Source: Verrucomicrobiota bacterium (GTDB lineage: Bacteria > Verrucomicrobiota > Verrucomicrobiia > Limisphaerales > Palsa-1400). Taken from it: a stretch of DNA of 64,000 nt. Below, in pieces: positions 39,868-59,283 of the stretch. The stretch's first letter is position 1. Each line of letters starts with the position of its first letter. Location of the stretch: assembly GCA_049510745.1 (NCBI GenBank), contig JBEKYR010000002.1:96001-160000 (forward strand). The letters are read 5' to 3'. The notes under the pieces were generated by a model. The model saw only the letters and a program-made list of their open reading frames with translations. It made no database searches and was not told where the DNA came from. The translations under genes and the position numbers were made by a program.

Positions 39868-42021
39868 CTAGTGCGCCAGGCGCGAGGCCATGGCGTAGAT
39901 GATCAAAATGAGCAGGATCACGCCGACGCCGAAAAAGAGGTAGCCAAAGGAGCGGGCGATGGCTTTCCAGCGTTCCCATTCGTCCTTGATGCGCAATTCC
40001 TCCAGCCGCCCGCCGCCCAGCAGACGCTCATACCAGCGCCGCCGCTCGTGCAGCAGTTCGGTCTTGGAGATGCGGCCGGAAAAGATGACGGTGTCCATGG
40101 GAAATTTCTCCAGCCGAAAATGGGTGTTGAAGAAGTGAATCGTAAAGATGAAACCCGCCGCCAAAAGGGCTTCGTCGGAATGAACGATCAGCGCGACGTT
40201 TATCATCCAGCCCGGCATGAAATGCGAAAAGAACTGCGGAAACCACATGACCAGCCCCGACATGCCAATGGCAAAAACGCCCCAGAACACCGCGAAATAA
40301 TCGAACTTTTCCCAGTAGGTCCACCGGTCGAACTGCGGCTTCGGCCCTTTGCCGAAAAACCATTTCTGGTGCGCCACGAAATCCTTCGCGTCCTGCCACG
40401 TCGGGATCATCGAGTCGGGGCCGAACAGCACCTCATTCAGGCGCGTCCATTTGGAGCGCCAGGTGCCGCCGCGGAAGCGGCCGCGCGTCTGCCAGGCCTT
40501 GAGCAGCAGCTTGGCCAGGTGCAGCCCGAAATAGAGAAAGGTGACGAGCGCCCCGAAATGATGGAGGGTGCGGGCCACTTCGGCCCCGCCCAGCACGCCG
40601 AAGATCGCCTTGGCCCAGTCCGTATAGTAGAATTTGAGCGGCATGCCGGTAATGACCAACAGCAGGAAGCTGGTCACGACCAGGAAATGCAGGAATCGTT
40701 CAAAGGGCGGAAAGCGCGTGTACCAATCGTCGCCCTGCTGCGCTTCCACCTTGGCTTCGCGGAAGGTCTTCGAGTCGTGCAGATAGAGGTAGCCGGAGCG
40801 AAACAGCCACAAGAGGGTGTGCGCGCCAAAAAAGGCAAAAACCCCGATCAGCAGCGCGGTCATGGCGACAAACGTCCAATGCAACTGCGGATAATGCTTG
40901 GCGTCCATCGGATCGGCGTGCGGAACGTACTCGGCGAAACTGGCCGTGGCGCCGGGATGACATTTCTGACACGTTCCCACGATGTTGGCCTTGGAAAGAT
41001 GCGAGGCCGGATTGGACGGCGGCAGCACGTCGTGGTGGCCGTGGCAGTCGTAACAGGCGGCCACGTCGGAGGCGACATTCGGCCGGCCCAAAGCCATCGC
41101 CTTGCCATGATAGGTGTCGCGGTAATGGGCCAGGCGGTCCTGGTGACAGCGTCCGCAACGTTCATCGCTGCGCGCCTTGAAGTGGTTGCCGCCGGGGGAC
41201 TCGATTTGATGCGCCGAGTGGCAGTCGGTGCAGACCGGGCCGGACTGGTCGCCTTTGGCCAGTATCTGGCCGTGAATGCTGGCGTTGTAGGTTTTCTCGA
41301 TGCCCAGATGGCAGGCCCCGCAGGTCGCCGCCACGTTGGCGTGATTGACCGACGAACTGCGGTCCACGCTTCGCTTGATGTCGTGAACCCCGTGGCAGTC
41401 ATTGCAGGACGGCGCCAGGATCAACCCCATTTGCAGCAGCGCCCGCCCGTGAATGCTCTCCGAATACTGCGACGCCACTTGCGGAAATTTCATGCGGTAC
41501 TCGGCGGTGATTCCGCTGTTGCTGTGGCATTTGGCGCAGGTCCGCGGCAGGTTGAGTTTGAAGACGGGCGAGTCGGCGTGTTTGACCGGCTGCATCTCGT
41601 GCGAACCGTGGCAATCGACGCACGAGGCGGCCGCCGACGCGCCCATGGCCTTGCTCATGCCGTGAATGCTGCCGGCGTAGAGCTTGGCCTCCGCCTGGTG
41701 GCAGGAGGCGCATTGCGCCGGGGGCAGCCCGCTGGGATGCACCATCTCTTTGATGCTGTCGTGGCAATCGGTGCAGTTGAGTTTGGCGTGGACTGATTTC
41801 GGAAACGTGTTCGTCGGAAACAGCTCCATCGGCACAATCTGTCCCTGAACCTTGCGCGTCGTCGTCGGGTCCGTGTGGCAGTCCAGACAATCCTGGTTGG
41901 ACAGCGGCGCAGCCGTCAGCGGAGCGGCCAGCGACAGCCAGAAAACGAGGGCGAAACTGTAAAGAGCGGACCTTTTACATTCCGCCGTTATGACAGTCGG
42001 TGCATTGATATGCGGGATCAT
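39868..42021 (-). CDS. CbcL-like 11-heme cytochrome c fused to a cytochrome b (FdnI-like) membrane domain
   Basis: 11 CxxCH counted; TM domain 'ERFLHFLVVTSF', 'WTYWEKFDYFAVFWG', 'HSDEALLA'; start uncertain because it overlaps the upstream gene. Confidence 0.88.
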   Translation of the reverse strand: MIPHINAPTVITAECKRSALYSFALVFWLSLAAPLTAAPLSNQDCLDCHTDPTTTRKVQGQIVPMELFPTNTFPKSVHAKLNCTDCHDSIKEMVHPSGLPPAQCASCHQAEAKLYAGSIHGMSKAMGASAAASCVDCHGSHEMQPVKHADSPVFKLNLPRTCAKCHSNSGITAEYRMKFPQVASQYSESIHGRALLQMGLILAPSCNDCHGVHDIKRSVDRSSSVNHANVAATCGACHLGIEKTYNASIHGQILAKGDQSGPVCTDCHSAHQIESPGGNHFKARSDERCGRCHQDRLAHYRDTYHGKAMALGRPNVASDVAACYDCHGHHDVLPPSNPASHLSKANIVGTCQKCHPGATASFAEYVPHADPMDAKHYPQLHWTFVAMTALLIGVFAFFGAHTLLWLFRSGYLYLHDSKTFREAKVEAQQGDDWYTRFPPFERFLHFLVVTSFLLLVITGMPLKFYYTDWAKAIFGVLGGAEVARTLHHFGALVTFLYFGLHLAKLLLKAWQTRGRFRGGTWRSKWTRLNEVLFGPDSMIPTWQDAKDFVAHQKWFFGKGPKPQFDRWTYWEKFDYFAVFWGVFAIGMSGLVMWFPQFFSHFMPGWMINVALIVHSDEALLAAGFIFTIHFFNTHFRLEKFPMDTVIFSGRISKTELLHERRRWYERLLGGGRLEELRIKDEWERWKAIARSFGYLFFGVGVILLILIIYAMASRLAH

Positions 42022-43459
42022 ATTCGTCCAACGGATGGGCAAACTTCAGGCCTTGCGGGCTGAGTTGGTTGATCTGCTCGCCGCTGCCTTGGGCCAAAAT
42101 CAAATGGCAGGCGTTGCAGTCGTTGGCTTTTATCGTCCTCTTCCCAACGGTCGAGACATGTTTGCCGTCATGGCATCGGAAACAGCCCGGCCAATCCTTG
42201 TGGCCGATATTGTCCGGGTAGGCCCGCCAATCGGCCTTCATCTCGGGGAAGAAATTATCCCTGTAAATCTGCTGCACGGTGTCGATGGCCGGCCGGATGC
42301 GCGGGTCCTGCGGGTAGTTGTCGGCCAGCGTGGTGGCGATGGTTTGCAGGGCGCTGGTCTCATCCTTGTAAGCGCGGCACAAGACTCCCACCGCGTTGGT
42401 CTTGATGTAGGGCAGGGCGGTGGAGATTTGACCCAGGGACATGGCCAGATTGACGGCGCTTTCCGGCGCCTGGAGCTTGTGGGCCGGGCGATTATGGCAA
42501 TCCATGCAGTCCATCGTTCGCTTGGCAAGCTGGCTGGCGTCATTGGTAAACCCCGCCGCGCGGAACTCCGTCACCACCCCCTGCGGGTCGGTCATGCGCA
42601 CCCACGGGATTTTTTGGCGCGCCTCGTCGGTGGCGATGTATTCAATCTTGTTGGCCACGTTCATGTGCCAATGGATGCCGCCGACCGGCCCGTGCGTGGG
42701 ATCGCCGCCGCCCACTTTGAGCAACAAACGAATGGCGTAAAGCGTGTTGGTCTGGTCCGGCAGATAGTAGGAGAGGGTGCGGTCAAGGTTGCCGACAAAT
42801 TTCTTCGGCCAATGGCATTGCTCGCACGTTTCCTGGGCCGGCCGCAGATTCTTGACAGGCGTGGGAATGGGCGTGGGATATTTGTGGGCCAGGGTCGCAT
42901 ACACCTGGTAGGTGCCGGACAATTTGGAGCGCACATACCACTCGGCGCCCTTGCCGATGTGGCATTCGGCGCAGGCGACCCGCGCGTGCGGGGAATGCCG
43001 GTAGCTTGTCAACTCCGGTTTCATCACCGTGTGGCACGCTTCTCCGCAAAACTCGACCGATTCCGTAAAGTGATACGTGTGGTAACTCCCCATCGCGGTC
43101 AGCAGAAGGAACCCGGCGGTGGCCGGGATGAAAAAGGCCAGCAGGCGCCGGTCATGCGCGCGCGCGAAATCAATGTTGATGTACAAAGACGGGGCGGCGC
43201 CGTTGGCTTTGGCCAACCGGCGGCGCCACCGCCAGGCGCCAAAGAGGAAGATGGCCAATCCCGCCGCCAGAAACGCCGGCGCCACCAGGAAGGTCAGAAT
43301 TCCCACGTACGGGTTCGCCGAATAGACGACCGCATCGAGGAAAAACAGCAGCAGAAACGCAAAAACACTCGAAGCCATCAGCACCAGCCCCGCCAGGGAA
43401 ACCCAGTTGCGAAAGAGCGAGGGCGGGCGAACCGATCCCGTTGGGGCAGGGGTGCTCAT
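41975..43459 (-). CDS. ImcH-like NapC/NirT-family inner-membrane 7-heme cytochrome c
   Basis: 3 N-terminal TMs, CGEACH plus 6 CxxCH, 'LRPAQETCEQCHWP', 'CMDCHNRPAH'. Confidence 0.88.
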   Translation of the reverse strand: MSTPAPTGSVRPPSLFRNWVSLAGLVLMASSVFAFLLLFFLDAVVYSANPYVGILTFLVAPAFLAAGLAIFLFGAWRWRRRLAKANGAAPSLYINIDFARAHDRRLLAFFIPATAGFLLLTAMGSYHTYHFTESVEFCGEACHTVMKPELTSYRHSPHARVACAECHIGKGAEWYVRSKLSGTYQVYATLAHKYPTPIPTPVKNLRPAQETCEQCHWPKKFVGNLDRTLSYYLPDQTNTLYAIRLLLKVGGGDPTHGPVGGIHWHMNVANKIEYIATDEARQKIPWVRMTDPQGVVTEFRAAGFTNDASQLAKRTMDCMDCHNRPAHKLQAPESAVNLAMSLGQISTALPYIKTNAVGVLCRAYKDETSALQTIATTLADNYPQDPRIRPAIDTVQQIYRDNFFPEMKADWRAYPDNIGHKDWPGCFRCHDGKHVSTVGKRTIKANDCNACHLILAQGSGEQINQLSPQGLKFAHPLDEYDPAYQCTDCHNGGM

Positions 43460-43530
43460 AAGCGGGCGCTGGAGGGTTGGAGCAACCCTTTCCGCCACTG
43501 CTCCAACGCCTCACGACGCCGTCGGCGTCT

Positions 43531-43942: not shown

Positions 43943-45202
43943 TCAAATGCGCGCCTCCGGCGGATTGGGATGGCGCACAGCGCCCGGGACCACGTTCTCG
44001 ATCGTCGGCAGGTCCAGGGCCAAAAAATACTTGACCAGCACCGTCAAAATCACGAAGGGCAGCGCCAGCAGCGCCAGGGAGAGAAGCCAGCCTTCCGAGC
44101 CGGCAAACTCCATCTTGTAGCTCATGAAACCGCGCAGGCTCTTGGAAAAAAGCTGGCCGCCAATCACCACGTTCCAGCGCATCGCCAGCACCCCCATCAG
44201 GATCAGCGCCGCGCAGGAGAAATAAACCCGGCGGCGGTTCAACTCCGCCACCTTCCGGCGGACCAGTTGCATCGATCCCAGCAAGAAGAGCGGCACCAGC
44301 GTGCCCAGGCAGGCCTGCCCGATCAGCAGCGTGTAAAACAACTTGCTCGCCGCCAGCGACCGCAGCACATCGATCCCCTCCTCGGCCGAATAAAGGCGGT
44401 GCAGCCAGTCCAGTCCTTCGATGGTGGCGTCGATCACCAGCGCATAAAACAGAAAGCTCGTCATCAAGTCCAGGCACCGCATGTCGGCCGTGATCCGGCG
44501 CGCCCAGCACAAAAACATGTAAACGAACACGCACAGCGCCATGCCCGACACCACCGCTGAGAGAATGAAAATGATCGGCATGAGCACGTTGCCCCACCAG
44601 GGATTGGCCTTGATCGAGCCGAAAATGAATCCGACATACCCGTGCAACAGAAACGCCGACGGAATGCCGACGACGGAAATGATCCGCCCCATGCGGTCGT
44701 CCAAACGCAGGGCCGGCTCGGAAAGGTCCGTCACGCCCAGGGTGAACGCCCGGTAGATGATGCCCCTCAAGCCGCTCTGGGTGTTGGCCCACTCCACAAA
44801 ATCCCGCCGGTAATCGAACCAGAGTTCCAACAGGAGCACGGCCATCAGGTACCAGGCATAGACAAAACCGAACATGGCCATGGGCGAACTGAAGTGCGGC
44901 GTCATCATGATCTCATAGCAACGCTCGGGATGGCCCAGGTGAAAAAGCAGCGGCAGCGTCGCGCACAGCAAAAACGCGAGCGCTGTCAACAATGCCAGCC
45001 GGTAAACCGGCTCCAGCGCCCTGACTTTGAAGACCCGCACCAGCGAGGCCATTATGAAAGCTCCCGCCACCAATCCGGTGATGTAGGGATAGACGACGAT
45101 CAGCACGCTCCACAGCGGATGCAGCGTCCGTTCGTTGGGATAGACGTAGCCCTCGAATTGCGGCAGCGCGTCCACCACGTTGGTCAAAATGGCGGCGTTC
45201 AT
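43943..45202 (-). CDS. NrfD/PsrC-family membrane subunit
   Basis: WSVLIVVYPYITGLVAGA, HLGHPER, SPMAMFG, about 10 TMs. Confidence 0.92.
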   Translation of the reverse strand: MNAAILTNVVDALPQFEGYVYPNERTLHPLWSVLIVVYPYITGLVAGAFIMASLVRVFKVRALEPVYRLALLTALAFLLCATLPLLFHLGHPERCYEIMMTPHFSSPMAMFGFVYAWYLMAVLLLELWFDYRRDFVEWANTQSGLRGIIYRAFTLGVTDLSEPALRLDDRMGRIISVVGIPSAFLLHGYVGFIFGSIKANPWWGNVLMPIIFILSAVVSGMALCVFVYMFLCWARRITADMRCLDLMTSFLFYALVIDATIEGLDWLHRLYSAEEGIDVLRSLAASKLFYTLLIGQACLGTLVPLFLLGSMQLVRRKVAELNRRRVYFSCAALILMGVLAMRWNVVIGGQLFSKSLRGFMSYKMEFAGSEGWLLSLALLALPFVILTVLVKYFLALDLPTIENVVPGAVRHPNPPEARI

Positions 45203-46008
45203 TATCGAACCTCCTCATCCAGGCCCGCGTAGGCCACGCGCGGTCCGGTGCCCAGATTGCGTTTCAGGCCCTCCACCTTGTTGTTGGAGATGAACCGTTG
45301 CAGCGGGTCGTCCGCCACGGGGTTTTTCAAATCGCCGAATATCCGGGCCTGCGAGGGGCAAATCTCCACGCACGCGGGCTTGAGTCCTTTCGTGATCCGG
45401 TGGTAGCACAGGGTACACTTGTCGGCGGTGTGCGTTTCCGGATTCAGAAACCGGCATCCGTACGGGCAGGCCTGCACGCAGAAACCGCACCCGATGCAAT
45501 AATTCTTGTCCACCAGCACCACGCCGTCCGGGGATTGGAAGGTGGCGCCGACCGGGCAGACCTGCGAGCAGGGCGACTTCTCGCAGAGGTTGCAGAGTTT
45601 GGGGACAAAGAACGATTTAAGAATGTCCTCCTTGGGAACGAGCGACACCGGGAAGCCCTCCTTCCCGCCGTCCGGCGAGTCCACGATGGTTTCGCCGCGG
45701 GTCTCGCCCGATCCCGGCTTGGGCTTGGTAATGACGTAGCGCTCGATCCAGGTGCGGAAATGGGAATCCGGGACGCTGTTCTCCTCCCGGCACGCTTCGA
45801 CGCACAGGCCGCATCCGATGCACCGGTCCACGTCCAGCGCCATCAGCCATTTGTGTTGGAACGGATCGTAGCCGGCGGGGGCGTGCGCGGAAACCAAGCC
45901 GTGCCGCACGGCCGCTTTGCAGGTGCGCCCGGCCGACAGGGTCAGAATGCCTCCGACAATTCCAGCCAGATTCTTCAAAACGCTGCGGCGGGTGATATTC
46001 TCGCTCAT
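45202..46008 (-). CDS. Tat-exported 4Fe-4S dicluster protein (NrfC-like)
   Basis: ITRRSVLK; CIGCGLCVEAC, CNLCEKSPCSQVCP, CIGCGFCVQACPY, KCTLC..CVEICP. Confidence 0.93.
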   Translation of the reverse strand: MSENITRRSVLKNLAGIVGGILTLSAGRTCKAAVRHGLVSAHAPAGYDPFQHKWLMALDVDRCIGCGLCVEACREENSVPDSHFRTWIERYVITKPKPGSGETRGETIVDSPDGGKEGFPVSLVPKEDILKSFFVPKLCNLCEKSPCSQVCPVGATFQSPDGVVLVDKNYCIGCGFCVQACPYGCRFLNPETHTADKCTLCYHRITKGLKPACVEICPSQARIFGDLKNPVADDPLQRFISNNKVEGLKRNLGTGPRVAYAGLDEEVR

Positions 46009-46463
46009 GGAACCTCGTTGGGTTGGTGCGGAACATGGCACTCGGTGCAAACACTTCCGTTGTAATGGTTGTGGATGTTGATTTGGTGGAGCCATTTCGG
46101 CCGCGACGGGCTGGCCTGATGGCACCGCACGCACAAACTCATGTTGAGCTTGGGCAGTTTGTCGGCCGGATTCTCCACGTGCGCCCGGCCGGGGCCGTGG
46201 CAGGTTTCGCAGGACAACCCCTTGTGTTCCCCTTTGGCCAGCTTTTGCGCGTGGTCGGTATGGCATTCCACGCACGCCGCCTTTCCGGCCCAAAAGGGTT
46301 GCCGCGACGCGATCTCCTGCAACGCGGCTCCCCTGTAATGGCCGTATTGCCCAAAGGATAGCGGCGTCAGGAAGTAGCGCGCCGTGAAATAGGCGCACAC
46401 GATCCCGATCGTCAGCAGCACGAGCCGGATGATTTGCGGCGGCATTTTGAACAATCGCAACAT
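46005..46463 (-). CDS. Membrane-anchored tetraheme cytochrome c
   Basis: N-terminal TM; CVECH, CETCH, CVRCH, CTECH. Confidence 0.9.
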   Translation of the reverse strand: MLRLFKMPPQIIRLVLLTIGIVCAYFTARYFLTPLSFGQYGHYRGAALQEIASRQPFWAGKAACVECHTDHAQKLAKGEHKGLSCETCHGPGRAHVENPADKLPKLNMSLCVRCHQASPSRPKWLHQINIHNHYNGSVCTECHVPHQPNEVP

Positions 46464-46570: not shown

Positions 46571-47062
46571 TCATTTAAACGACATTTTTTGGGGAGTTGA
46601 TCCCTCAACCCCGCGCGAAACAGCCTGCCCTTCAAGCAAATCGGCCATTTCGCAAAGGCCCCGGTAATACTCTTCCCGGGGGATTCCCAGCGCCGCCGCG
46701 CCAAAGGCCTCCGCGTCATCGGACGACGCGAACTCCCCATAGTTGACAACAACCAACTGATAGAGCGCCAGGTGCGCCACCCGGTCCATCTCCGTCATGA
46801 AGAGCGGATGGACGTGAATGACAAATCCGTCTTCCGGCCGGCCGCCGTTTGGCTTCGGATAGGCGCACTCTCCCTTCTGGAGCGGGGCGGGGTCAAATAC
46901 GATCTGGCAGGGGTATCGGACACAGGCGCGGTCTTCGAGGATGCGCAATAGTTCGTTCCAGCCAATGCGCGGCCCGTACTTTTCAAAGATCTCGGCGCCC
47001 CTGGCGGCCGCGTGCCCGCTCAAGGATTGCCTGGCATCATCGGCTGTTAGTCTTTTTGACAT
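46571..47062 (-). CDS. Hypothetical protein
   Basis: ATG 47062 lies just downstream of the NrfD stop, co-oriented, protein-like composition. Confidence 0.65.
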   Translation of the reverse strand: MSKRLTADDARQSLSGHAAARGAEIFEKYGPRIGWNELLRILEDRACVRYPCQIVFDPAPLQKGECAYPKPNGGRPEDGFVIHVHPLFMTEMDRVAHLALYQLVVVNYGEFASSDDAEAFGAAALGIPREEYYRGLCEMADLLEGQAVSRGVEGSTPQKMSFK

Positions 47063-47073: not shown

Positions 47074-48810
47074 TTAGCCCCGGAGCGGGACGGCGGCGGA
47101 TGCACCGGGTTGCTCCGGCCCGCCTTCGTTCTCCCGGGACAATCGGCCCTGGAGTATCGGCACGGACATCCGCAGAAAAACCGTGTAGCAGAGCAGGCCG
47201 AAGGCCCAGATGCCGAAGCAAACCAGCGTCTCATTGAGGGACGGCCGGTATTCCATCATTTCGCCCAATGGCGTGGGGATGAAGCCGGGGATGACCAACC
47301 CCATTCCCTTTTCGATCCAGATGCCCACGATGCACAGGACGCACGTCAGGTTGAGCCATTTGAGGCTGCGGCTCACGGGCAACACCAGCAAGACCATCGC
47401 CACCAGGTTGAACGCGATCGCCGTCCAAATCCACGGCACCAGCGCGTGATGATGGTGCAGCCCGACGAATAGATATTTCGACGACGCCACATGCAGGTTG
47501 CCTGAATAGAATTCCTTGAAGACTTCGTTCAGCAGCAGGAACACGTTGATCAGCATGGAAACCTGCACGATGCTGCGCAGCGTCATCAGCGCGCGATCGG
47601 TGATCAGCAGCCGCTCGGACATCCGGGACCGGACGATTTTGTTCACCGGGGGCGATTTCATCAGCAGTCGCAAGGCGTCGGCGGTCAGGCTTAGAACCAG
47701 GCTCGGTTCTTCGGCCAGCGCCGTCGCCGTGCGCGGCGTGCCATTGAGGGCCGAGAGTTCTCCAAACTGTTCCCCCGGCCCGGCCGAGCGCGTAATCCGA
47801 AAACGCCCCCCCTCCTGCCTTTTCACCACCACGGCGCCCTGCAAGATAAAGAAGGCCCTGTTCTCGGTTTCTCCCTGGCGCAAAAGCGCGTCGCCGGGCT
47901 CAACCTCCAACACTTCCGCCAGCGGAAGAACTCGCTGGCGGCTTTCCACCGGCACCGACGCCATTTCGGGAAGATGCCGGCAGAGCAGGGCGAAGTCGTC
48001 CAGGGTCGCGGCGCGGCGCCTGGAGGGCGGCAACGGCGCGCCGCCCCCCGCGGGCGCTCCCGGGCCGAGTGAAGCGGATGAGGTCACGCGTCGCACGACC
48101 TGCATGGCGAGGATGATGAGAGCCGGCCCGGCGGTGAACGCCGAGGCCAGGAAACGCGGCCCCACGATCGACGAATTCCAAAACGGCCGCCCGCCCAGAC
48201 CCACATAGAGAAACGCCGTCACGGTGTGGATCGAGACCGCCCAGACGATGGCGATGAAGACGAACGGGATGTAAAACCATTTGCTCGGTTTGCTCTTGCG
48301 ATAGCGGCAGTAAAGCAGATAGCCGCAAATGTGGACGTTGAGCAGCAGGTAGCCGTTGAGCACAATGACGTCCCAACTGAGCATCGATCTGGGAAAGTTG
48401 AACTGCCCGATTCCAGGGATCAAATGCCAGAAACGATCCGGCCGCCCCAGGTCCACCGTCACAAACGCCAGGCACATCAGGATCGCCGCCACCGCCAGGA
48501 GTTCCCCGAAGATGACCAGGTCATGCAGGTCCTCGTTCTTGTAAATATAAACCGGGATGACCATCATGACCGCCGCCGCCGCCACTCCCACCAGGAAGGT
48601 GAAGTTGGCGATATAGACGCCCCACGAGACTTCGTCGCTCATCCCGGTGACGATCAGCCCGTGCGCAAACTGCCGGCAATAGGCGTTGAGGCCCAGCAGG
48701 CAAATCACGCTCAGCAGCCCGATCCACGCGTAGTAGCGCCAGTCGCCCACAAACGCGATGCCCGCGCAACGCCCCAGAAAAACAAGATAATTCCGCGTCG
48801 CGCGCCTCAT
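47074..48810 (-). CDS. NrfD/DsrP-family membrane subunit with inserted cyclic-nucleotide-binding domain
   Basis: TGMSDEVSWGVYIANFTFLVG, VDLGRPDR, HTVTAFL; insert with LLRQGE, FFILQGAV, GPGEQFGELSALNGTPRTATALA. Confidence 0.9.
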   Translation of the reverse strand: MRRATRNYLVFLGRCAGIAFVGDWRYYAWIGLLSVICLLGLNAYCRQFAHGLIVTGMSDEVSWGVYIANFTFLVGVAAAAVMMVIPVYIYKNEDLHDLVIFGELLAVAAILMCLAFVTVDLGRPDRFWHLIPGIGQFNFPRSMLSWDVIVLNGYLLLNVHICGYLLYCRYRKSKPSKWFYIPFVFIAIVWAVSIHTVTAFLYVGLGGRPFWNSSIVGPRFLASAFTAGPALIILAMQVVRRVTSSASLGPGAPAGGGAPLPPSRRRAATLDDFALLCRHLPEMASVPVESRQRVLPLAEVLEVEPGDALLRQGETENRAFFILQGAVVVKRQEGGRFRITRSAGPGEQFGELSALNGTPRTATALAEEPSLVLSLTADALRLLMKSPPVNKIVRSRMSERLLITDRALMTLRSIVQVSMLINVFLLLNEVFKEFYSGNLHVASSKYLFVGLHHHHALVPWIWTAIAFNLVAMVLLVLPVSRSLKWLNLTCVLCIVGIWIEKGMGLVIPGFIPTPLGEMMEYRPSLNETLVCFGIWAFGLLCYTVFLRMSVPILQGRLSRENEGGPEQPGASAAVPLRG

Positions 48811-49763
48811 ACGTCGAAGTAGTAGAAGAAGCGCGGGGAGGTGCCCATTTCCTCCTTCAACTGGATGAAGACGCGTTTGTTTCTCAGGATGTAGGAAACC
48901 TCGCTGTTCGGATCGAGGACGTTGCCGAACTTGCGCGCCCCGGCCGGGCAGACCTCCAGGCACGCCGGATAGCGCCCAATGCGCGTGCGCTGGATGCAGA
49001 AGTGGCACTTCTCCATCACTCCCTGCCGCCGCGGCCGGTTGCCCAGATACGCCATCTCGGGGTTGAGCCGTTCCTTTGGAATGGACGGCTGGGTGAAGTT
49101 GAATCGCCGCGCCCAATAGGGGCACGCCGCTTCGCAATAACGGCACCCAATGCACCAGTCATAATCGATCACCGTGATCCCGTCCGCTTCCTGCCATGTC
49201 GCATGAACCGGGCAAACCTTGACGCACGGCGGATTCTTGCATTGCTGGCACTGCACCGGCATGTAGAAAAAACCCTTTTCCGGGACGGATTCCGGCGCAT
49301 AAAAGTGTTCGGCTTTGTCAATGTCCAGCGAACCGTCCGGCAGCCGCAGCACGCGGATGTATTGAATCTCCGGATCGCGCGACTGGTTGTTCTCCGCCAC
49401 GCACGCATGAACGCATTTGCGGCATCCGATGCAACGGGTCAGATTGAGACAGTAAACGAATTCCACCCCGTCCATCGGCTTCAAATCCCGCACGTGCGGA
49501 CGCAACCCATACTGCTTTTCCACTTCGTCCTCGATCCGCGTTAAAACCTTGGCCATGTCCTGGGGCGTCATCTCCTTGTAATACTTCTGCAGGAACCGCT
49601 CCATGCTGGGGAAATCGTTCATTTCCAGCAGCGGCTTCAGGCTGGCCGCCAGCGCCGCCAACCCCGTCGCCACCACGGCGGAAGTGCGCAGGAAACTGCG
49701 CCGCCCCATGCCGTTGGCCGGCGGCCCTGGATTCCTGGCTGGAGACGACGGTGGATTGTTCAT
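48807..49763 (-). CDS. Tat-exported 4Fe-4S dicluster protein (DsrO/NrfC-like)
   Basis: GRRSFL; CIGCRKCVHAC, CQQCKNPPCVKVCP, CIGCRYCEAACPY, KCHFC. Confidence 0.93.
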   Translation of the reverse strand: MNNPPSSPARNPGPPANGMGRRSFLRTSAVVATGLAALAASLKPLLEMNDFPSMERFLQKYYKEMTPQDMAKVLTRIEDEVEKQYGLRPHVRDLKPMDGVEFVYCLNLTRCIGCRKCVHACVAENNQSRDPEIQYIRVLRLPDGSLDIDKAEHFYAPESVPEKGFFYMPVQCQQCKNPPCVKVCPVHATWQEADGITVIDYDWCIGCRYCEAACPYWARRFNFTQPSIPKERLNPEMAYLGNRPRRQGVMEKCHFCIQRTRIGRYPACLEVCPAGARKFGNVLDPNSEVSYILRNKRVFIQLKEEMGTSPRFFYYFDV

Positions 49764-49764: not shown

Positions 49765-50409
49765 TCATTCGTGGCTGGCCGGCGCGGCGTCGGCGGCGGT
49801 CATCTCCCTCAACGGATGCGGGCCGGGCGCGGGCTTTCGCGAAGGAAACCGGGGCGAATGCGGGTTGTGGCAGTTCACGCAGTCCTTTCGTTCTATCGGG
49901 CCTTGGCTTCGGTCCCAATACCCGCTGATCCTGCCATGCGCTCCAGCCTCCCAGTCCCGATAGGTCGGCCCGTGACAACTGCCGCACAATTGCGTGCTGT
50001 CGGCGAATTTCAGCTCCCGCCCGTCACGCGGCTGGAGCAGCACGAGATTGGTCTCGTTGTGACAGTTAAAGCAGTTGTTGTTGCGCCCGTGCCGTCCGTG
50101 CCCCATCACGACGTCCGCGTGCTCCGTCGGAACAATGATGACCTGATTGGTGTCCAGCCGCAGCACCGGGGGCTTCTTCTTGTCATGACAAGCGTAGCAG
50201 TCAAAATCCGACAGGTCCGCCCCCGCCCGCGCCAGGTCCGCGTAGGACCGCCGGGTGGTTGACAGGTCAAGAAAGTTTGTGTCCACCAGCGCAATCGCCG
50301 GGCGCCTCCACTGCGTTTCGACCGCGCCGGACAGAAAGGCCAGCGCCAGCGCCGCGAAGGCCGCGGACAGAACCGCCAGGCTGATTCCGGTCTTGGCGTT
50401 GGTTGTCAT
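49765..50409 (-). CDS. Membrane-anchored tetraheme cytochrome c
   Basis: CYACH, CFNCH, CGSCH, CVNCH. Confidence 0.9.
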   Translation of the reverse strand: MTTNAKTGISLAVLSAAFAALALAFLSGAVETQWRRPAIALVDTNFLDLSTTRRSYADLARAGADLSDFDCYACHDKKKPPVLRLDTNQVIIVPTEHADVVMGHGRHGRNNNCFNCHNETNLVLLQPRDGRELKFADSTQLCGSCHGPTYRDWEAGAHGRISGYWDRSQGPIERKDCVNCHNPHSPRFPSRKPAPGPHPLREMTAADAAPASHE

Positions 50410-50545: not shown

Positions 50546-50875
50546 CTATTTCTTGAACGCGCGAACCTTGGCCACCAGCGCCTTGATATCGTCGTCCGAC
50601 AGGCCCTCGGCGGCTTTCATCTTGGTCTTGTCCCCGTCTTTGATCCCCTCCTTGATCGCCTTGGTCGCCTGCTCATCGGTGAAAGACGCTTGATAGGTGG
50701 CGTCGGTAAAGTCCTTCACCTCCATTTTCTTGCCGATCTTCGTATCGCCCTTGCCATCGGCGCCGTGGCATTTCTGGCAGGTCTTATCCCAGTTCGCCGC
50801 GGCGTCGTCGGCGGTCAGGGCGGCGGAGCTTGCCGCAAGGGCAAGAATTGTCAGATAGAATTTCGTTCGTTTCAT
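50546..50875 (-). CDS. Monoheme cytochrome c, paralogue of 43531-43857
   Basis: CQKCHGADGKG; ends in FKK like its paralogue. Confidence 0.92.
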   Translation of the reverse strand: MKRTKFYLTILALAASSAALTADDAAANWDKTCQKCHGADGKGDTKIGKKMEVKDFTDATYQASFTDEQATKAIKEGIKDGDKTKMKAAEGLSDDDIKALVAKVRAFKK

Positions 50876-51325
50876 AGTTTTCAGCGTATCATTTATTCGG
50901 ATTCTGGCCATGCCGGGCAGCCGCGGCCAAAGCACGGCCCCGGCACAGCTCGTGTTTCTTCGGAAACAACATGGCCGACCCTCCTTGTCTGTGCTGCCCC
51001 GGAATTGTCATTTGCTTCGCTTTTTTTGGCATCTGGCTGCCACAGAACGGATTAGCCGGGGGCAAATCTCCGATGGGAGCAGCCCGCGTCCACAGAACGG
51101 CATGAACCAACCAAAACAAGGGATGCCGCGGCCAATTTTTGGTTAGCCACCACGAGAAGACAAGATGAGCAACTATGGCGCAGGAATTTTTGCCTCTGGC
51201 AAGGCACTCGTGAGCCGCATGGGCGAGGATCGGGGCGTGAGACGGCGCTTGGGTAGTGTACCAATGTAAAATCCGGCGTTCTACTTTCCGCTTGATTCTC
51301 CCGCCAGCGGGGCCAAGGTTTGCCT

Positions 51326-51637
51326 ATGCCTACGCGCCTAAGCAAACAGAAACTGGAAGAAGCAGAGAGCATTAATTCACTGGCCGCCCGCATTGCCGCC
51401 CAAACGACCGGTCAGGAACCGTCCACACCGCAGCCCCCGCCACTCAGGGAGAAAAATGCTGCCGCTGTGGCGCTGGGGCGTTTGGGTGCGAGCAAAGGCG
51501 GAAAGGCGCGGGCTGAGAATCTCTCCGCCTCTCAGCGAAAGAGAATCGCCACAAATGCCGCCAAAATGCGATGGGCTAAAAGAGGCTTTGTTCAAATTTC
51601 CGAATCATCTCCTAAATCATCCTCGGAAGTGGGGTAA
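51326..51637 (+). CDS. Small basic hypothetical protein
   Basis: KNAAAVALGRLGASKGGKARAENLS..RKRIATNAAKMRW, a motif typical of small proteins in mobile regions. Confidence 0.7.
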   Translation: MPTRLSKQKLEEAESINSLAARIAAQTTGQEPSTPQPPPLREKNAAAVALGRLGASKGGKARAENLSASQRKRIATNAAKMRWAKRGFVQISESSPKSSSEVG

Positions 51638-52104
51638 TTCTTGGACATGGCGCGTTCTTCCATATCCTCCCTGAAATCCATAAGCACCTGAATTGGTACG
51701 GATTTATTGTAGAATTCATTATAGCTGTCTGAATCTTGTTTAAGTTGCCAACACGCATCGACTATATGGCCTCTCCTTTGCTGGAAGCTGTCAAACATAA
51801 ACGGTGGTGGTGCAATCTCCATATCGTACCACAAAAACAGTTGTATTTTCTCTCCGTTGGCCTTCGTTTCTTTATATCGGACAACGTGTTTTCGTCTCAC
51901 CTTTCGTCCGCTCGCGTCGATAGTGGTCTGGGTGCGCATGGCTTGGGTAATATCACCAGCCAACCTCGAAAGCTCATCCCTTTGAGGCGCTTTCCATCCC
52001 CTTTTAATTAGCCAGTCCGCGATTTCGTATGGGTTGAGCGCCCCATCTTTAACACTCCTTCTAAACTCATCAATCTGGCCCTGTAGCTGTTTGTTGTAAC
52101 TCAT
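51592..52104 (-). CDS. Hypothetical protein
   Basis: AT-richer ORF starting MSYNKQLQ, 20 bp downstream of the XRE-ImmA gene. Confidence 0.7.
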   Translation of the reverse strand: MSYNKQLQGQIDEFRRSVKDGALNPYEIADWLIKRGWKAPQRDELSRLAGDITQAMRTQTTIDASGRKVRRKHVVRYKETKANGEKIQLFLWYDMEIAPPPFMFDSFQQRRGHIVDACWQLKQDSDSYNEFYNKSVPIQVLMDFREDMEERAMSKNYPTSEDDLGDDSEI

Positions 52105-52123
52105 ATTGTTCCTGTTCAGTAAC

Positions 52124-53251
52124 TTAGACTTGAGGCAATGGCCTTCCCCACCCATCGGTAATTGCTGCTGCGATAACCAAGTCGCGGACTTTAACAAGCA
52201 TTTCACGGTTATGGCTCCATCCAATTTCTTTCAGGTGTTGCAGTTGTCCATTAACAATACCAGGATGCACGCGGACAACTTGTGCAAATTGGTTTATTCT
52301 TTCTTTTGAATAAAATGGTCTGGTTCTTATGATGAAGGATTTTAGCTTTTCTTGTGGGATAAGCATTTCAGCACCTTCCCGATCCGCTCTTTCCTCAATT
52401 TCGTTGAAAGAACCGCAGCGCGATTCTCCAACTAGATCAGAATCGACGGATCGCTTGTCTCCATTTTTTATATGAGACAACTCATGCGATAGCGTATGCC
52501 AAAACCAGTCGATTCTATCGTAACGCAATGAGAGGACTATAACAGGCGCATTCGCTTCGAGCCAGAACGCCGCGCCATCAATCCTAGATCGTGGAAGAGG
52601 CTCTACAACCACAAGGCGAACGCCCAGTTCTGCCAATACCCTCGGCACATGGCGCACTGCCTCAGGAAATTGTGCGAGCGCACGAATTTCAGACAACCCA
52701 GCCTTAAATTTATCACAGTGAAATGGCCTAACATTGAGCACGGACGCAAGTTGACTCGCTTTTGTAACCCATGCCCGCTGCGCGGCAGTAAATTCCTCGA
52801 CACGTTCGGTTTGGCGGGCACTGGCTAAAATTTGTGGCTCTTCGTCAAGCGATTGGATCTTGAAAAATCGGCATAATTCAACTTCCAAGTCCGCTGGATT
52901 ATCGGTGTCCGCAATCCATTGGCGCTTCTGCATGTCTTTGATCGGAGCCACCTCGTAAAGGCGCGTCCGCCTCTGAATTTCACAATCGTCCAGCTCCAAA
53001 AGGGATAGGCGATAAGCATTTTCACGCTCCAGCCAAATTCCTGGTCCGGTGCCAAATGCGATACCGATTGCGACCGCCATTTCCGGTGTTAGAACCCGTT
53101 TTCCCTGCAATAATTCACTAACGATCGGAATATGGCGCCGGATAATCATGGCGAAGTCAGCCTGCGTCCAACCCCTTTGTTGGAGTTCAGCCTTAATGAA
53201 CTCGCCGGGCGATAATGGCTTTTCATCTGTCATCTCGATCAAGATTGCCAT
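52124..53251 (-). CDS. HigA-like XRE HTH fused to ImmA/IrrE metallopeptidase
   Basis: SPGEFIKAELQQRGWTQADFA HTH; LRYDRIDWFWHTLSHELSH (HExxH). Confidence 0.9.
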   Translation of the reverse strand: MAILIEMTDEKPLSPGEFIKAELQQRGWTQADFAMIIRRHIPIVSELLQGKRVLTPEMAVAIGIAFGTGPGIWLERENAYRLSLLELDDCEIQRRTRLYEVAPIKDMQKRQWIADTDNPADLEVELCRFFKIQSLDEEPQILASARQTERVEEFTAAQRAWVTKASQLASVLNVRPFHCDKFKAGLSEIRALAQFPEAVRHVPRVLAELGVRLVVVEPLPRSRIDGAAFWLEANAPVIVLSLRYDRIDWFWHTLSHELSHIKNGDKRSVDSDLVGESRCGSFNEIEERADREGAEMLIPQEKLKSFIIRTRPFYSKERINQFAQVVRVHPGIVNGQLQHLKEIGWSHNREMLVKVRDLVIAAAITDGWGRPLPQV

Positions 53252-56200: not shown

Positions 56201-58327
56201 TCAAAAGCGATACCGCAAGGTGGCATAGATAAGACTGGCGCCATAGTCGGCGTTCCCGCCCGAAGCCGCGTCGAGATAGCGGAAGTATCCATACTTCAAC
56301 GACAGGCGGACCCTTTCGCTGATCCGCCGGGTGAGCGTGGCCGTGATGGAATGCTCCTGCCCGCCGGCCCCGTAAGGAACCCCGGCCGGAGAGTTGTCGC
56401 TGTAATCATCCGCTTGATAGTAGAAATAACTCACATTCAGGTCTGTCTTGTTGTCCAGAACCAGCCCGGAAGAAAAGTTCACCGTCCAGTAGTTGTTCCG
56501 GGCGTCGAGGATGGCCTGGGTGACCTCCGACGCCGGGGTCGCCGTGTCGCTCAAGACATAATTGAAACCGGCTTGCAGGCATAACCGGGACCAAGGCGTC
56601 CAACTGATGTCCTGCGCGAGGATGTGAGTTCTCATGGTCGCGGACTCCACGTCGGGCAGGCCGGCGAGGGGATCGGGCGCCGTGTGGATGGTGGACCATT
56701 GATATTCATAGCGGCTGACCAGGCTCACGTTCTGCAAGGGTCTCAAAGTCAGCCTGAAGTTTCCGTCATAGGTCGCGAACTTCTGCATCTCCAGATACCC
56801 CGGGTACCGGTTTGGACTGTTATTGGGCGTGCTGTCCAGCGAACTGCCATAGTGGTAAACGTCAAGTTTGTAGTAACCGCCGGCATCAATGGTGATGCGG
56901 CGCGAGGGATACCACCTGGCCCCGGCGGTGTACTTCTGGATGACGTTCCGGTTGTCGGTCGCGCTTTGCACGGCCGGAAGCCCAATGCCGCCGACCGGGA
57001 TCAATCCGCCATATTGATCCAGGTTTCCGTCCACTTCGGTCAAATCAAGGCAAGCGTGGAGCACCCAATTGGTGAACCCTCTGTAGGCGAGGTCAATCCG
57101 CCCGCGCACATCGAGATCGCCGGCGTCGCTGTTGGCGGCAAAGGCCACAGGCAGGGCGGCGCCCAGGGTTTCAAACCCGCCGGAGTCCGCCGTCCAATCA
57201 TCCTTTTGCACGCGCACGGAAGGGATGACGGTAAGATAAGGAGTCGGTTTGTAGAGGAGGTTAAGATCCATCACGTATTCCTGCAGGCTCGAGCCGCCGC
57301 TCAAGGCGAAGTAGCCGAAGCCATATTGGGCGTTGGGCACGTAACCAACATCGAAGTCAGACCCGTAAATGCGGCTGCCGGAGAAACTATTATCCAAGTG
57401 CGAGTAGGAGAAGCCGGAGGAAAACAGGAGATTGGTTCGGACCCAGGTTTCCGTGAAGGTATGGACATCAAACACGTCATAGTGGGTGTCTTGCTGGCTG
57501 GTGATCTTTTGTTGGATGGGTTCACCCGGGAATTGGGTGATCTTCAGAGCGTCGTCCAACTTTCCCGTCTCGTAGTGCAGCCCCAGGCCCAAGTCCGTTT
57601 TCTTGACGTGGTCGGACAGGTCGAGCTGAAAACTGTCGGCATGCTCATGGATCTCGGAAACCGTCGGACTAAGTCCTTGCGTCACCGTGCTGCTCGCCGG
57701 ATGGGTGTCTCCCCAACTGGTGGAATCCTCTTCACCTTCCCGGAAGGTGTGCGTGTACTTGAAGACGGCGTTGATCCCCTTTTCCGGTGTCAGGCCCCCT
57801 TCCAGGGAAAAAGCCCCGCGATCCAGCCCGAGCGCATTTTTCGACAGCGGATAGTTCATGTCCGAAGGCGGGAAAAAGCCGCCATCCCCATCCGACCAGG
57901 TGCGGAATTCACTGTAGGAAAGGCGTAGAAAGCCGGTCTTCTCACGCTCGATGTCCAGCTTCAATTTGTAGTCGTGCTCATCGGCAATCGCCCGCCCGTC
58001 CAGGGTCAGCGTGGTGGTCTTGTCGAGATTGGTACCGTAATGCAGACCCGCGATGCCGCCAAAAGCCGCGCCCGAGATCTGGTGCTGCTGTTGGAAGCGG
58101 GCCTGGTTGCCGCTGCTCAGAATCCCGCCGGTGGAAAACTCGATCCAGTTGTTGTAGGAGTTTGATCCTCCCTCGAACATCTGCTCCGGGGTCAGCGGAG
58201 CGGGAACGGCCGCCGGCGGCGCGTTGGTCTCAGCCGCCACAACGGTGGACACCGCCGCGCCCAGAACCAGCAGCCACACCCCGCACCGGCGAATTTGTTT
58301 ATCCTGGAAAGGGGGGGTGGATTTCAT
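56201..58327 (-). CDS. MtrB/PioB-like outer-membrane beta-barrel porin
   Basis: Signal peptide, about 700 aa of amphipathic strands, terminal 'LRYRF', directly downstream of a DmsE-like cytochrome. Confidence 0.8.
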   Translation of the reverse strand: MKSTPPFQDKQIRRCGVWLLVLGAAVSTVVAAETNAPPAAVPAPLTPEQMFEGGSNSYNNWIEFSTGGILSSGNQARFQQQHQISGAAFGGIAGLHYGTNLDKTTTLTLDGRAIADEHDYKLKLDIEREKTGFLRLSYSEFRTWSDGDGGFFPPSDMNYPLSKNALGLDRGAFSLEGGLTPEKGINAVFKYTHTFREGEEDSTSWGDTHPASSTVTQGLSPTVSEIHEHADSFQLDLSDHVKKTDLGLGLHYETGKLDDALKITQFPGEPIQQKITSQQDTHYDVFDVHTFTETWVRTNLLFSSGFSYSHLDNSFSGSRIYGSDFDVGYVPNAQYGFGYFALSGGSSLQEYVMDLNLLYKPTPYLTVIPSVRVQKDDWTADSGGFETLGAALPVAFAANSDAGDLDVRGRIDLAYRGFTNWVLHACLDLTEVDGNLDQYGGLIPVGGIGLPAVQSATDNRNVIQKYTAGARWYPSRRITIDAGGYYKLDVYHYGSSLDSTPNNSPNRYPGYLEMQKFATYDGNFRLTLRPLQNVSLVSRYEYQWSTIHTAPDPLAGLPDVESATMRTHILAQDISWTPWSRLCLQAGFNYVLSDTATPASEVTQAILDARNNYWTVNFSSGLVLDNKTDLNVSYFYYQADDYSDNSPAGVPYGAGGQEHSITATLTRRISERVRLSLKYGYFRYLDAASGGNADYGASLIYATLRYRF

Positions 58328-58347
58328 CGGCGTCAGGGCTGGGGGGT

Positions 58348-59208
58348 TTAGAATCGCAACGAGGGGCTGACACGCGAACCATGCACGGCCTCGTGACAGC
58401 CGGCCGTCCAGCAGGTGCCTTGCTGGACACGCAACGTGTGGTCAGAGCCGCCGATGAGAAGCTGGCCCCCGCTCACCTGCTGGAAGTGGCATTTCAAGCA
58501 CAGGTTGGCGTTGCGCGCCGTCAACAGTTTGGCATTGACCGACCCGTGCGGAGCATGACAGGCGGTGCATCCCTCGCGCATGGCCTCGTGCGTGAACACG
58601 TAAGGCCCGCGCTGGGCGGGATGGCAGCGAAAGCAGCTTTCGTTTTGGGAGAGGAGCGCGGTGCCGCCCCCGATATAAATGGAGCCTTTGTGCGGCGAGT
58701 GGCAGTCGGTGCAGCCCAATTTGTCTTCCGTCACGGGATGATGGGTGGGAAGGCTAAACTGGCCGCGCACATCGGCGTGGCACTGGAAGCAAACCGTTTC
58801 CGTCGCGCGGGGCGGCCGGACAGCGGCGCGCGCGCCAAAGCTGTCTGATTTGGAGCGTCCCGACGTGAAGCTATAGGGAGGCAGCACCTCGCCGCCGGAA
58901 TCCGAGTGGAGGCTGCACGGTCCGTGGCAGGATTCGCATCCGGCGCTGATCGCATTGGTCCCCTCCGCTATCAAACGGGCGTGATCGGCCGTGGCGAATC
59001 CTTTGTAGATTTGTTCGTGGCACTGTTCGCACTCCTTGGAACCGATGTATTTTGCCCCGGGCACGTCCGGCAACACCACCACGGAACGGCTCACGGTGCC
59101 GCAGGAAATCACCAGCAGGAGCAGGACCATCGGGACGGCCGCCAGCGCCAGCGCCCGCGCCCACGCCGGGCCGCGCTTTGCCAGTCTGCGGAAGTTGCAA
59201 TTGCTCAT
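58348..59208 (-). CDS. DmsE/MtrA-like multiheme cytochrome c lipoprotein (8 heme motifs)
   Basis: Lipobox-like VISC; 7 CxxCH plus CWTAGCH; 'GPYVFTHE', 'CHAPHGS', 'VHGS'. Confidence 0.88.
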   Translation of the reverse strand: MSNCNFRRLAKRGPAWARALALAAVPMVLLLLVISCGTVSRSVVVLPDVPGAKYIGSKECEQCHEQIYKGFATADHARLIAEGTNAISAGCESCHGPCSLHSDSGGEVLPPYSFTSGRSKSDSFGARAAVRPPRATETVCFQCHADVRGQFSLPTHHPVTEDKLGCTDCHSPHKGSIYIGGGTALLSQNESCFRCHPAQRGPYVFTHEAMREGCTACHAPHGSVNAKLLTARNANLCLKCHFQQVSGGQLLIGGSDHTLRVQQGTCWTAGCHEAVHGSRVSPSLRF

Positions 59209-59283
59209 AACGTTTCAGCTTCTCGTCCCTCAGCCATGCAGCCCGGCGCCGCCGGCGTCAAGCCGTTCTTCGCGCCGGGCGTT

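Follow-up and report, generated by a model that had tools for sequence, protein, structure and literature searches.

The window analysed here is a stretch of 64,000 nucleotides (nt) from a member of the Verrucomicrobiota (assembly GCA_049510745.1, contig JBEKYR010000002.1, positions 96,001 to 160,000), and it carries a respiratory operon whose NrfD-type membrane subunit, here called P0001, has a cyclic nucleotide-binding (CNB) domain inserted within it. The initial annotation of this DNA had described an in-frame insert of about 160 amino acids (aa) at 47605..48082, lying between transmembrane (TM) segments, after QVVRRVT and before ITDRAL, with a Pro/Gly linker and the cassette motif FGELSAL..TPRTATA. 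This description held up well and needed only slight refinement. The insert comprises residues 244-402 (159 aa; 47605..48081), is in frame, is flanked by QVVRRVT at 237-243 and ITDRAL at 403-408, and falls between TM6 and TM7 of the structure model. The gene and its parts are as follows:

47074..48810, minus strand: DsrP-type NrfD membrane subunit with an inserted CNB domain (P0001, 578 aa)
48082..48810, minus strand: N-terminal membrane part, residues 1-243, with an amphipathic helix (2-19) and TM1-TM6 (helix A and core helices 1-5); contains D120 and S142
48025..48081, minus strand: Pro/Gly/Ala-rich N-terminal linker of the insert, residues 244-262, with low model confidence, low identity and high dN/dS
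47614..48024, minus strand: CNB domain, residues 263-399, recognised by PF00027, the structure model and Foldseek
47719..47766, minus strand: phosphate-binding cassette, residues 349-364, FGELSALNGTPRTATA, conserved in 50 insert-bearing sequences
47605..47613, minus strand: connector R400-L401-L402 (with the preceding S398-E399) from helix C to TM7, marked by column conservation
47077..47604, minus strand: C-terminal membrane part, residues 403-578, with TM7-TM10 (core helices 6-8 and helix B); contains K501

The parent open reading frame (ORF) extends over 47074..49155 on the minus strand, and ATG 48810 is the most likely start because it overlaps the stop codon of the upstream iron-sulfur (FeS) gene as ATGA. 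In Pfam, P0001 matches PF03916 (NrfD) with 128.4 bits against a gathering cut-off of 25.8, over residues 54-243; the insert breaks this match off, so that only profile positions 2-202 of 313 are covered. The match to PF00027 (cNMP_binding) is nearly complete (67.2 bits, cut-off 27.5; residues 302-385, profile positions 3-87 of 89). The whole protein also passes the NCBIfam DsrP equivalog model NF045798, with 408.5 bits in two stretches against a cut-off of 350. In a six-frame search of the genome, profile positions 5-214 and 215-344 of DsrP flank the insert, with no part of DsrP missing; scored singly, these two pieces reach 305.1 and 112.9 bits, each below the cut-off. Alignment with 26 insert-less orthologues places the extra segment at residues 244-399, and the end of the insert was set at 402 because residues 400-402 (R-L-M/L) also differ fully from the x-Y-x found at the insert-less junction.

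Authenticity and Distribution of the Insert

The combination of NrfD and CNB domains is plentiful in public databases, where it stands under generic names. When a collection of 5.8 billion proteins was searched, the best 120 of 8000 scored candidates were clusters that all carried both PF03916 and PF00027 (79-100% identical, 561-626 aa), with names such as 'HybB-like' or 'polysulfide reductase NrfD [Verrucomicrobia bacterium]'. With clustering at 50% identity, the sole full-length insert-bearing representative among the top 150 was P0121 (65% identity), and it was followed by insert-less proteins of about 410-430 aa with at most 54% identity.

At the level of genomes, a locus scan using one genome per species found at least 570 relatives among 600 stretches, and the best 80 loci were examined. 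Almost all of these belong to metagenome-assembled genomes (MAGs) of Verrucomicrobiota, including Limisphaerales, Opitutaceae, Akkermansiaceae and others; five loci (L014, L040, L046, L051 and L084) carry another taxon label or none. After six partial loci (L015, L044, L045, L049, L053 and L072) had been left out, 74 full-length genes from other genomes remained, of which 48 have the insert at the same junctions and 26 lack it. Among the organism's own genome and 40 relatives, the gene is present in 16 of the 41, with 14 being insert-bearing and two having the insert-less form only. One of the 14 insert-bearing genomes also possesses an insert-less paralogue, and the gene was found in neither of the two same-genus genomes of this set. 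Finally, in an even sample of the phylum (401 genomes, up to eight candidates scored per genome), a 191-aa query across both junctions was matched at E <= 1e-25 in four genomes, namely the organism's own and three of the 35 from one other family.

Metagenome contigs provide independent coverage of the junctions. A 793-nt contig from an independent peat metagenome run covers 47422-48214, and thereby both junctions, with no differences, and in another run two contig pieces each bridge one junction. The stretch occurs wholly or partly in 20 runs from 18 studies, all of them of peat or wetland, of which three may be the source. One contig joint (X4) that skips 47527-48206 has only 21 letters on its shorter side, which is below the trust limit, and was not used.

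An artefact, whether an assembly chimera such as the initial annotation had been wary of, a mis-joined contig or a decaying pseudogene, can be set aside as exceedingly improbable. The single item found in its favour is an insert-bearing relative that is split into two frames. On the other side stand the two domains in 120 of 120 nearest clusters, the shared junctions in 48 of 74 full-length relatives, the 14 of 41 genomes with the insert, the independent contig across both junctions, the open frame and the signature of purifying selection; an origin by chimera or pseudogene decay was thus rejected. The split gene itself (L044, 7000-8745), seen in one MAG, may reflect a sequencing error or a broken copy, as may an insert-less gene with an in-frame TGA at G012:C186:4618-5112.

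Structure and Membrane Topology

An AlphaFold2 model of P0001, built from a 70-row alignment, has a mean predicted local distance difference test (pLDDT) of 88.8 and a predicted TM-score (pTM) of 0.86, and consists of 10 TM helices plus the CNB domain. Following the amphipathic helix at 2-19, six TM helices (24-243) lead into the linker (244-262; pLDDT 58-61), the CNB domain (263-399; pLDDT 93-98), the connector and four further TM helices (405-553). The elements expected of a CNB domain are all in place, with N-terminal helices (270-297), a beta roll (298-376), the cassette helix (351-356), helix B (377-383) and helix C (387-397), and the connector between helix C and TM7 is seven residues long. 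Structural comparison with Foldseek is in agreement, as the insert resembles CNB domains of PKG and PKA overall at TM-scores of 0.70-0.80 (rmsd 2.6-3 A), led by PKG I-beta (4qxk; 0.80, 2.6 A) and including PKA RI-alpha (5kjx; 0.73), and CNB-gated channels were matched as well. By sequence, the insert matches the PKG and PKA-R CNB domains at E about 1e-13. The CNB domain is thus complete in fold.

The membrane part resembles ActC of alternative complex III (ACIII), with Foldseek TM-scores, normalised by target, of 0.69-0.73 to four ACIII structures. In a sequence search of the PDB with the whole protein, only CNB proteins appeared among 60 of the 72 matches, and a profile of insert-less sequences matched ActC only, at E values from 6e-34 to 4e-23. 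The alignment from that profile pairs D120 with ActC His139, S142 with Ser164 and K501 with Arg395. According to a 2021 review of NrfD proteins (PMC8076601), these ActC positions correspond to quinol protonation, the entry to the quinol pocket and a mid-membrane gate, respectively, and the gate residue is Lys in DsrP of D. vulgaris. Conservation in our alignment is at least 90% for D120 and S142, and K501, the gate residue, is conserved too. With two four-helix bundles and the P-side Asp and Ser markers of a quinol site, as judged from the model and the ActC alignment, P0001 has the features of the NrfD fold.

Several lines of evidence bear on which side of the membrane the insert faces. The same review assigns to 10-helix members a helix A, core helices 1-8 and a helix B, and by implication places the N-terminus of the 8-helix core on the positive, periplasmic (P) side (PMC8076601). 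The insert loop follows TM6, i.e., core helix 5, and lies between core helices 5 and 6; with the core N-terminus on the P side, this loop is therefore on the negative (N) side, in the cytoplasm. The distribution of charge points the same way, as Lys and Arg account for 11 of 58 inner-loop residues (insert loop excluded) vs 6 of 85 outer-loop residues. The FeS partner bears a twin-arginine translocation (Tat) signal, in line with an insert loop on the N side, and the cytochromes of the operon must be periplasmic. From the helix order, the ActC alignment, the charge counts and the Tat partner, the insert is placed in a cytoplasmic loop and not in a periplasmic one, the other placement raised in the initial annotation. 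Directly after it, TM7 (core helix 6) forms part of the four-helix bundle that also contains Lys501.

Conservation and Selection

The residues of the cassette G-E ... R-x-A-T/S contact the ribose and phosphate of the cyclic nucleotide, and they are almost invariant across the 50 insert-bearing sequences (G350 50/50, E351 49/50, R360 49/50, A362 48/50, T/S363 49/50, A364 50/50). The position after the Arg, 361, varies (Val in 13 of the 50, Ala in 13, Met in 11 and Thr in 9); the base specificity is therefore not fixed, and cAMP vs cGMP cannot be called. The connector is similarly conserved in the insert-bearing forms, with R400 in 50/50 and L401 in 48/50.

The three parts of the protein evolve at different rates. 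Mean identity to the query is 0.86 for the core, 0.62 for the CNB domain and 0.32 for the linker (here residues 244-274), and approximate median pairwise dN/dS values, taken over the 388 of 1176 pairs with a core dS of 0.1-1.2, are 0.10, 0.31 and 0.84, respectively. The CNB domain is thus under purifying selection, and the linker evolves almost neutrally.

Evolutionary History of the Insert

The insert takes the place of a three-residue cytoplasmic hairpin between core helices 5 and 6. This hairpin is kept in 26 of the 74 close orthologues and in all eight insert-less outgroups, which, for these sequences, bears out the statement in the initial annotation that NrfD proteins normally have only a short loop here. 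In the insert-less orthologues the alignment gap spans residues 244-399 (245-400 in L081), and the sequence across the junction is ...IRRVT-xYx-ITDKALLTL, with Tyr at the centre of the junction in 26 of 26, as against R-L-M/L in insert-bearing forms. Among the eight outgroups, at about 50% identity, the corresponding residue is Tyr in P0129 and P0130, Phe in P0126, P0127 and P0135, Leu in P0128 and Cys in P0125, with no clear match in P0137. Since five of the eight have Tyr or Phe at this place, the sequences indicate that the short hairpin is most likely ancestral and the insert derived.

Some of these relatives carry other attachments. P0126 (a metagenome protein of 566 aa, 53% identical over the matched parts) is a DsrP-like NrfD protein of a sister clade that lacks the CNB insert and ends in a C-terminal pair of CBS domains, also cytoplasmic; its 90% cluster has 24 members and is named 'molybdopterin-containing oxidoreductase family membrane subunit'. 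Elsewhere, the NrfD relative P0132 is fused to a C-terminal multihaem segment, and P0198 to an FeS subunit.

On a tree of the core, insert-bearing and insert-less forms are interleaved. The insert label needs at least eight changes on this tree, and its well-supported branches force at least three. A single clade of the 50 insert-bearing rows was rejected by the approximately unbiased (AU) test at p 0.009, a value that applies to a post hoc grouping on a quick LG+G4 tree. A single gain followed by clean vertical descent was accordingly rejected. Repeated clean loss appears unlikely as well, because all 26 insert-less sequences keep x-Y-x and five of the eight outgroups are aromatic there. Distances for the core and the CNB domain correlate moderately (Spearman 0.55), and an insert-less sequence is the nearest neighbour by core distance in only two of the 50 insert-bearing rows. 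The interleaving may reflect either recombination of the cassette between highly similar flanks or a tree misled by a short, conserved core.

A CNB domain that had split off into a separate gene was also considered. A search with residues 244-402 found no second insert-bearing copy in any of five insert-less genomes, the best matches not exceeding 33% identity except for one piece of 65 residues at 42%, and this explanation was rejected. Both forms occupy the same operon. The CNB domain is therefore dispensable for the core function, as expected of a regulator, and the existence of the complex with and without it in one operon fits an accessory regulatory role.

Operon and Genome Context

The operon is transcribed on the minus strand, and the genes that accompany the NrfD gene are listed in order:

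50546..50935, minus strand: monohaem cytochrome c, first gene of the operon (129-aa ORF; Pfam Cytochrome_CBB3 and Cytochrom_C; one CXXCH)
49765..50409, minus strand: tetrahaem cytochrome c (214 aa; four CXXCH; Cytochrome_C7, Paired_CXXCH_1), whose N-terminus bears a hydrophobic anchor or signal
48807..49763, minus strand: periplasmic 4Fe-4S protein, DsrO/NrfC-like, 318 aa, with the twin-arginine signal GRRSFLR (Fer4_11, Fer4_7)
46571..47062, minus strand: downstream gene of no known family, 163 aa, without a signal peptide, 11 nt after the NrfD stop

The arrangement is widely shared. The monohaem cytochrome, whose start is likely an internal Met ahead of the signal-like stretch KRTKFYLTILALAASSAALTA, has a homologue upstream in most related loci, and the tetrahaem cytochrome directly upstream of the FeS gene is likewise conserved. 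The FeS gene, for which the best NCBIfam match is DsrO (169.7 bits, below the cut-off of 200), is present in 78 of 80 related loci; the remaining two begin at or just before the NrfD gene, leaving no room for it. The 163-aa gene is near full length in 65 of the 80, with insert-bearing and insert-less forms alike. Its product has no Pfam match at E up to 1, its Atlas neighbours are hypothetical proteins of Verrucomicrobiota, and it bears a weak, below-bar structural likeness to metallopeptidase folds of M78/M48/SprT type. This protein, encoded just 3' of the NrfD gene, has invariant His, Cys and Tyr columns and is predicted to be cytoplasmic.

Neither gene of dissimilatory sulfite reduction was found in this 94%-complete genome, with no match to dsrA and only 21-bit matches to dsrB, and a role for the operon in sulfite reduction was consequently rejected. 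The operon is a stand-alone tetrahaem/FeS/NrfD module that neighbours genes of extracellular electron transfer. Nor does P0001 qualify as a subunit of DsrMKJOP, its neighbours being cytochromes c, an FeS protein and a protein of no known family; the operon contains no DsrM- or DsrK-like gene, the genome as a whole not having been searched with DsrM or DsrK profiles.

This organism appears to make good use of cyclic-nucleotide signalling. Two homologues of class III cyclases are encoded in its genome, along with eight CNB domains; of the four NrfD-family genes, only 47074..48810 carries such a domain. Other CNB proteins of the same genome include a 372-aa histidine kinase of CNB-HisKA-HATPase architecture (G000:C3:32260-33375, L086) and a protein of 539 aa (G000:C2:179117-180734, L085) in which a C-terminal CNB domain is the only Pfam family recognised.

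Further redox genes lie in the window. Directly downstream, at 43943..46463 (minus strand), is a second module with a cytochrome c (four CXXCH), an FeS protein whose best match is TtrB-like (189 bits, below the cut-off) and an NrfD protein without an insert (419 aa); the two modules are found together in many loci, though not always in the same order, and this second one is followed by a 507-aa NapC/NirT-like cytochrome at 41975..43498. At 39868..42042 (minus strand) lies a gene with homologues in many related loci that encodes a 724-aa protein, in which 11 CXXCH are fused to a cytochrome-b561-like (Ni_hydr_CYTB) domain. This fusion of c-type and b-type parts presumably recalls CbcL, the inner-membrane quinol oxidase of Geobacter.

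The genes at 56201..63995 (minus strand) resemble the Verrucomicrobial porin-multihaem cytochrome cluster of He et al. 2017. They encode a protein of 708 aa that has a signal peptide, belongs to no Pfam family and ends in ..RYRF; an adjoining 286-aa cytochrome with seven CXXCH and one CX3-4CH; a 531-aa cytochrome with nine CXXCH; a DUF7088 protein; and a cytochrome of at least 662 aa, with nine CXXCH, that runs off the window. Finally, the G+C content dips to 0.457 at 51500-51949, in the interval that separates the respiratory operon from a P-type ATPase gene. This low-G+C stretch overlaps a 210-aa ORF of no family (51592..52224) and ends before a gene with HTH_3 and a weak Peptidase_M78 (ImmA/IrrE-like) match (52124..53251), and the region 51500..53251 is possibly a small mobile or foreign segment.

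Proposed Function and Rival Explanations

P0001 is best described as the cofactor-free, quinol-binding NrfD subunit of a tetrahaem-cytochrome/4Fe-4S/NrfD module that resembles DsrJOP or the DsrOhPh-tetrahaem locus. This module would most likely pass electrons from membrane quinol to periplasmic cytochromes and from there to the products of the porin-multihaem-cytochrome genes of the same window. In one Verrucomicrobiota lineage, the helix 5-6 hairpin has been replaced by a complete CNB domain, held on its N-terminal side by a floppy, fast-evolving linker, with the ligand-responsive C-helix running through the seven-residue conserved connector straight into TM7. In CNB domains generally, binding of a cyclic nucleotide repositions helices B and C. 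Here, cAMP or cGMP from the cell's class III cyclases could bind the cassette and move the B and C helices as in other CNB proteins; such a movement could displace TM7 within the K501 bundle, and the shift might tune quinol turnover, the proton path or both. Such a mechanism would act as a valve, at the post-translational level, on the electrons leaving the quinone pool.

The presence of a CNB domain in a quinone-handling respiratory subunit suggests, from sequence, that a second messenger may act directly on a respiratory enzyme, and a stand-alone quinol:cytochrome module whose CNB-fitted NrfD subunit is tuned by cAMP or cGMP is the reading that we lean towards, with somewhat better than even confidence. 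The initial annotation had gone in the same direction in proposing a respiratory complex under direct allosteric control by a cyclic nucleotide. What stands of that proposal is the insert, its location, fold, cassette and selection, together with the two class III cyclases; control by a cyclic nucleotide keeps the standing of a suggestion. Several points weigh against it. A conserved cassette is necessary for ligand binding and not sufficient, and since the quinol site lies across the membrane from the domain, long-range coupling is conjecture. There is no co-occurrence signal, because class III cyclases are present in five of five insert-bearing and five of five insert-less genomes alike. In addition, dS near 1 makes the dN/dS values rough, and no RNA run is among the runs that contain the stretch.

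A bolder version, which we hold more tentatively and judge to fall somewhat short of an even chance, is that of a respiratory quinol:cytochrome oxidoreductase gated directly by a cyclic nucleotide and feeding an extracellular-electron-transfer chain, in which the CNB domain is a swappable cassette and the CBS-bearing clades have evolved a parallel sensing of adenine nucleotides. Lineages may switch between regulated and unregulated forms by recombination, since both forms, each with a fixed junction, interleave on the core tree, and the C-terminal CBS pair would be a second way of putting a nucleotide sensor on the cytoplasmic face.

Two rival explanations accept the domain and assign it another task. 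The CNB domain could control assembly, oligomeric state, stability or the recruitment of a partner, instead of catalysis, with or without binding of a ligand, for example through CNB-CNB contacts across a dimer of complexes. CNB domains are known to dimerise in CRP-type proteins, and a conserved cytoplasmic protein of 163 aa is encoded directly downstream. Furthermore, the DsrMKJOP decamer of A. fulgidus is held by DsrP-DsrP contacts and dissociates and re-forms with redox state, according to a 2026 cryo-electron microscopy (cryo-EM) preprint. We nevertheless consider this explanation unlikely, as the 163-aa gene is found equally with insert-less orthologues and so is not a CNB-specific partner, and as the direct, conserved link from helix C to TM7 fits intramolecular coupling better. 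An equally improbable alternative, in our judgement, is that the fold no longer senses cAMP or cGMP and serves as a structural spacer or responds to a different small molecule, as CNB-fold proteins with other ligands do. The 'cAMP-independent' PKA regulatory subunit of trypanosomes (6flo, 6h4g), also matched by Foldseek, shows that such a change of ligand can occur; in the same direction point the variable position 361, which leaves base specificity unfixed, and the threefold faster evolution of the CNB domain relative to the core. Against it, 49-50 of 50 sequences retain the Gly-Glu and Arg-x-Ala-Thr residues that contact ribose and phosphate, and the domain has a dN/dS of 0.31; a spacer would not need such contacts, and the true spacer of this protein, the linker, is at 0.84.

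Bacterial respiratory chains are known to be controlled mainly through transcription, as by cAMP-CRP or FNR. If the CNB domain does gate the complex, the flow of electrons into extracellular electron transfer would come under rapid control at the post-translational level, in hosts that are Verrucomicrobia of peat and humic water and thus relevant to carbon turnover. It would also help to address the question of if, and by what means, the quinol chemistry of NrfD/DsrP subunits is linked to processes at the cytoplasmic face, for example a proton path. A ready-made comparison exists in nature, in orthologues that occupy the same operon and differ in having or lacking the domain. A full-text literature search found no description of a CNB domain in an NrfD/DsrP subunit, in agreement with the initial annotation, which had not seen one described; the architecture is nonetheless common in databases. 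The terms 'NrfD' and 'cyclic nucleotide-binding' came up together only for an unrelated hydrogenase cluster, the accessible text of the 2021 NrfD review does not contain the words cyclic, fused, insertion or regulat- (PMC8076601), and in the literature searched no report was found of a second messenger that binds a quinone-reactive respiratory subunit itself.

Comparison with Known Systems

The nearest described system is the DsrOhPh-tetrahaem locus, formerly called 'candidate alternative complex III', which consists of a stand-alone tetrahaem cytochrome c with DsrO and DsrP homologues. According to PMC13047784, it occurs in cable bacteria, some Desulfobulbales and Gamma- and Betaproteobacteria, including organisms without sulfur metabolism, and its proposed role is the transfer of electrons from quinol to periplasmic cytochromes. 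The 2026 DsrMKJOP cryo-EM preprint mentions this locus as well. The operon described here has the same gene set (tetrahaem cytochrome, DsrO-like protein and DsrP), with a DsrO match below the cut-off and clade placement aside. The accessible text of PMC13047784 mentions no cytoplasmic sensor domain, unlike the case of P0001, and states that a small TMH1 protein is unique to cable bacteria.

Relative to DsrP of DsrMKJOP, P0001 scores above the equivalog cut-off, has 10 TM helices in the model, shares the gate Lys of D. vulgaris DsrP as well as the Asp and Ser markers of the quinol site, and has as partners a multihaem cytochrome and an FeS protein that is DsrO-like and bears a Tat signal. It differs in the 159-aa CNB insert in the helix 5-6 loop, and its setting differs in that dsrA and dsrB were not found in the 94%-complete genome and no DsrM- or DsrK-like gene lies in the operon; in addition, the cytochrome here has four CXXCH, whereas DsrJ has three haems (PMC8076601). 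ActC of ACIII (6f0k, 6btm, 6lod, 8k9e) is the nearest solved structure of the membrane part (E 6e-34), and the two proteins share 10 helices in two four-helix bundles. However, they are only 13-15% identical, ActC has His where P0001 has Asp120, and in the alignment the helix 5-6 loop of ActC has no insert.

For the outer part of the proposed pathway, the porin-multihaem clusters of bog Verrucomicrobia (He et al. 2017, PMC5615132) offer a counterpart to the 708-aa protein of the window and its adjoining cytochrome, whose seven CXXCH and one CX3-4CH match the 'eight conserved heme-binding sites' given in the accessible text for the cluster cytochrome. The peat or humic habitat and the further multihaem cytochromes nearby in the window are additional likenesses. 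In that text, however, the inner-membrane step is left unnamed as 'ET in IM', and the words polysulfide, quinol and cyclic do not occur in the portion available.

Finally, the channels MloK1, SthK and HCN/CNG share with P0001 a CNB domain with a canonical cassette that is covalently attached on the cytoplasmic side of a membrane protein, and they provide the working analogy, in which a ligand-driven movement of the C-terminal helices is passed to TM helices. In these channels a C-linker leads into a C-terminal CNB domain, which acts on the pore of a tetramer, whereas in P0001 the domain sits within the TM6-TM7 loop, with its C-helix placed ahead of a TM helix, and is housed in a redox protein that handles quinol. 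With its NrfD fold and loop-inserted domain, P0001 is thus not a CNB-gated channel. Both the NrfD module and the CNB-regulated membrane protein are known kinds, and P0001 combines the two.

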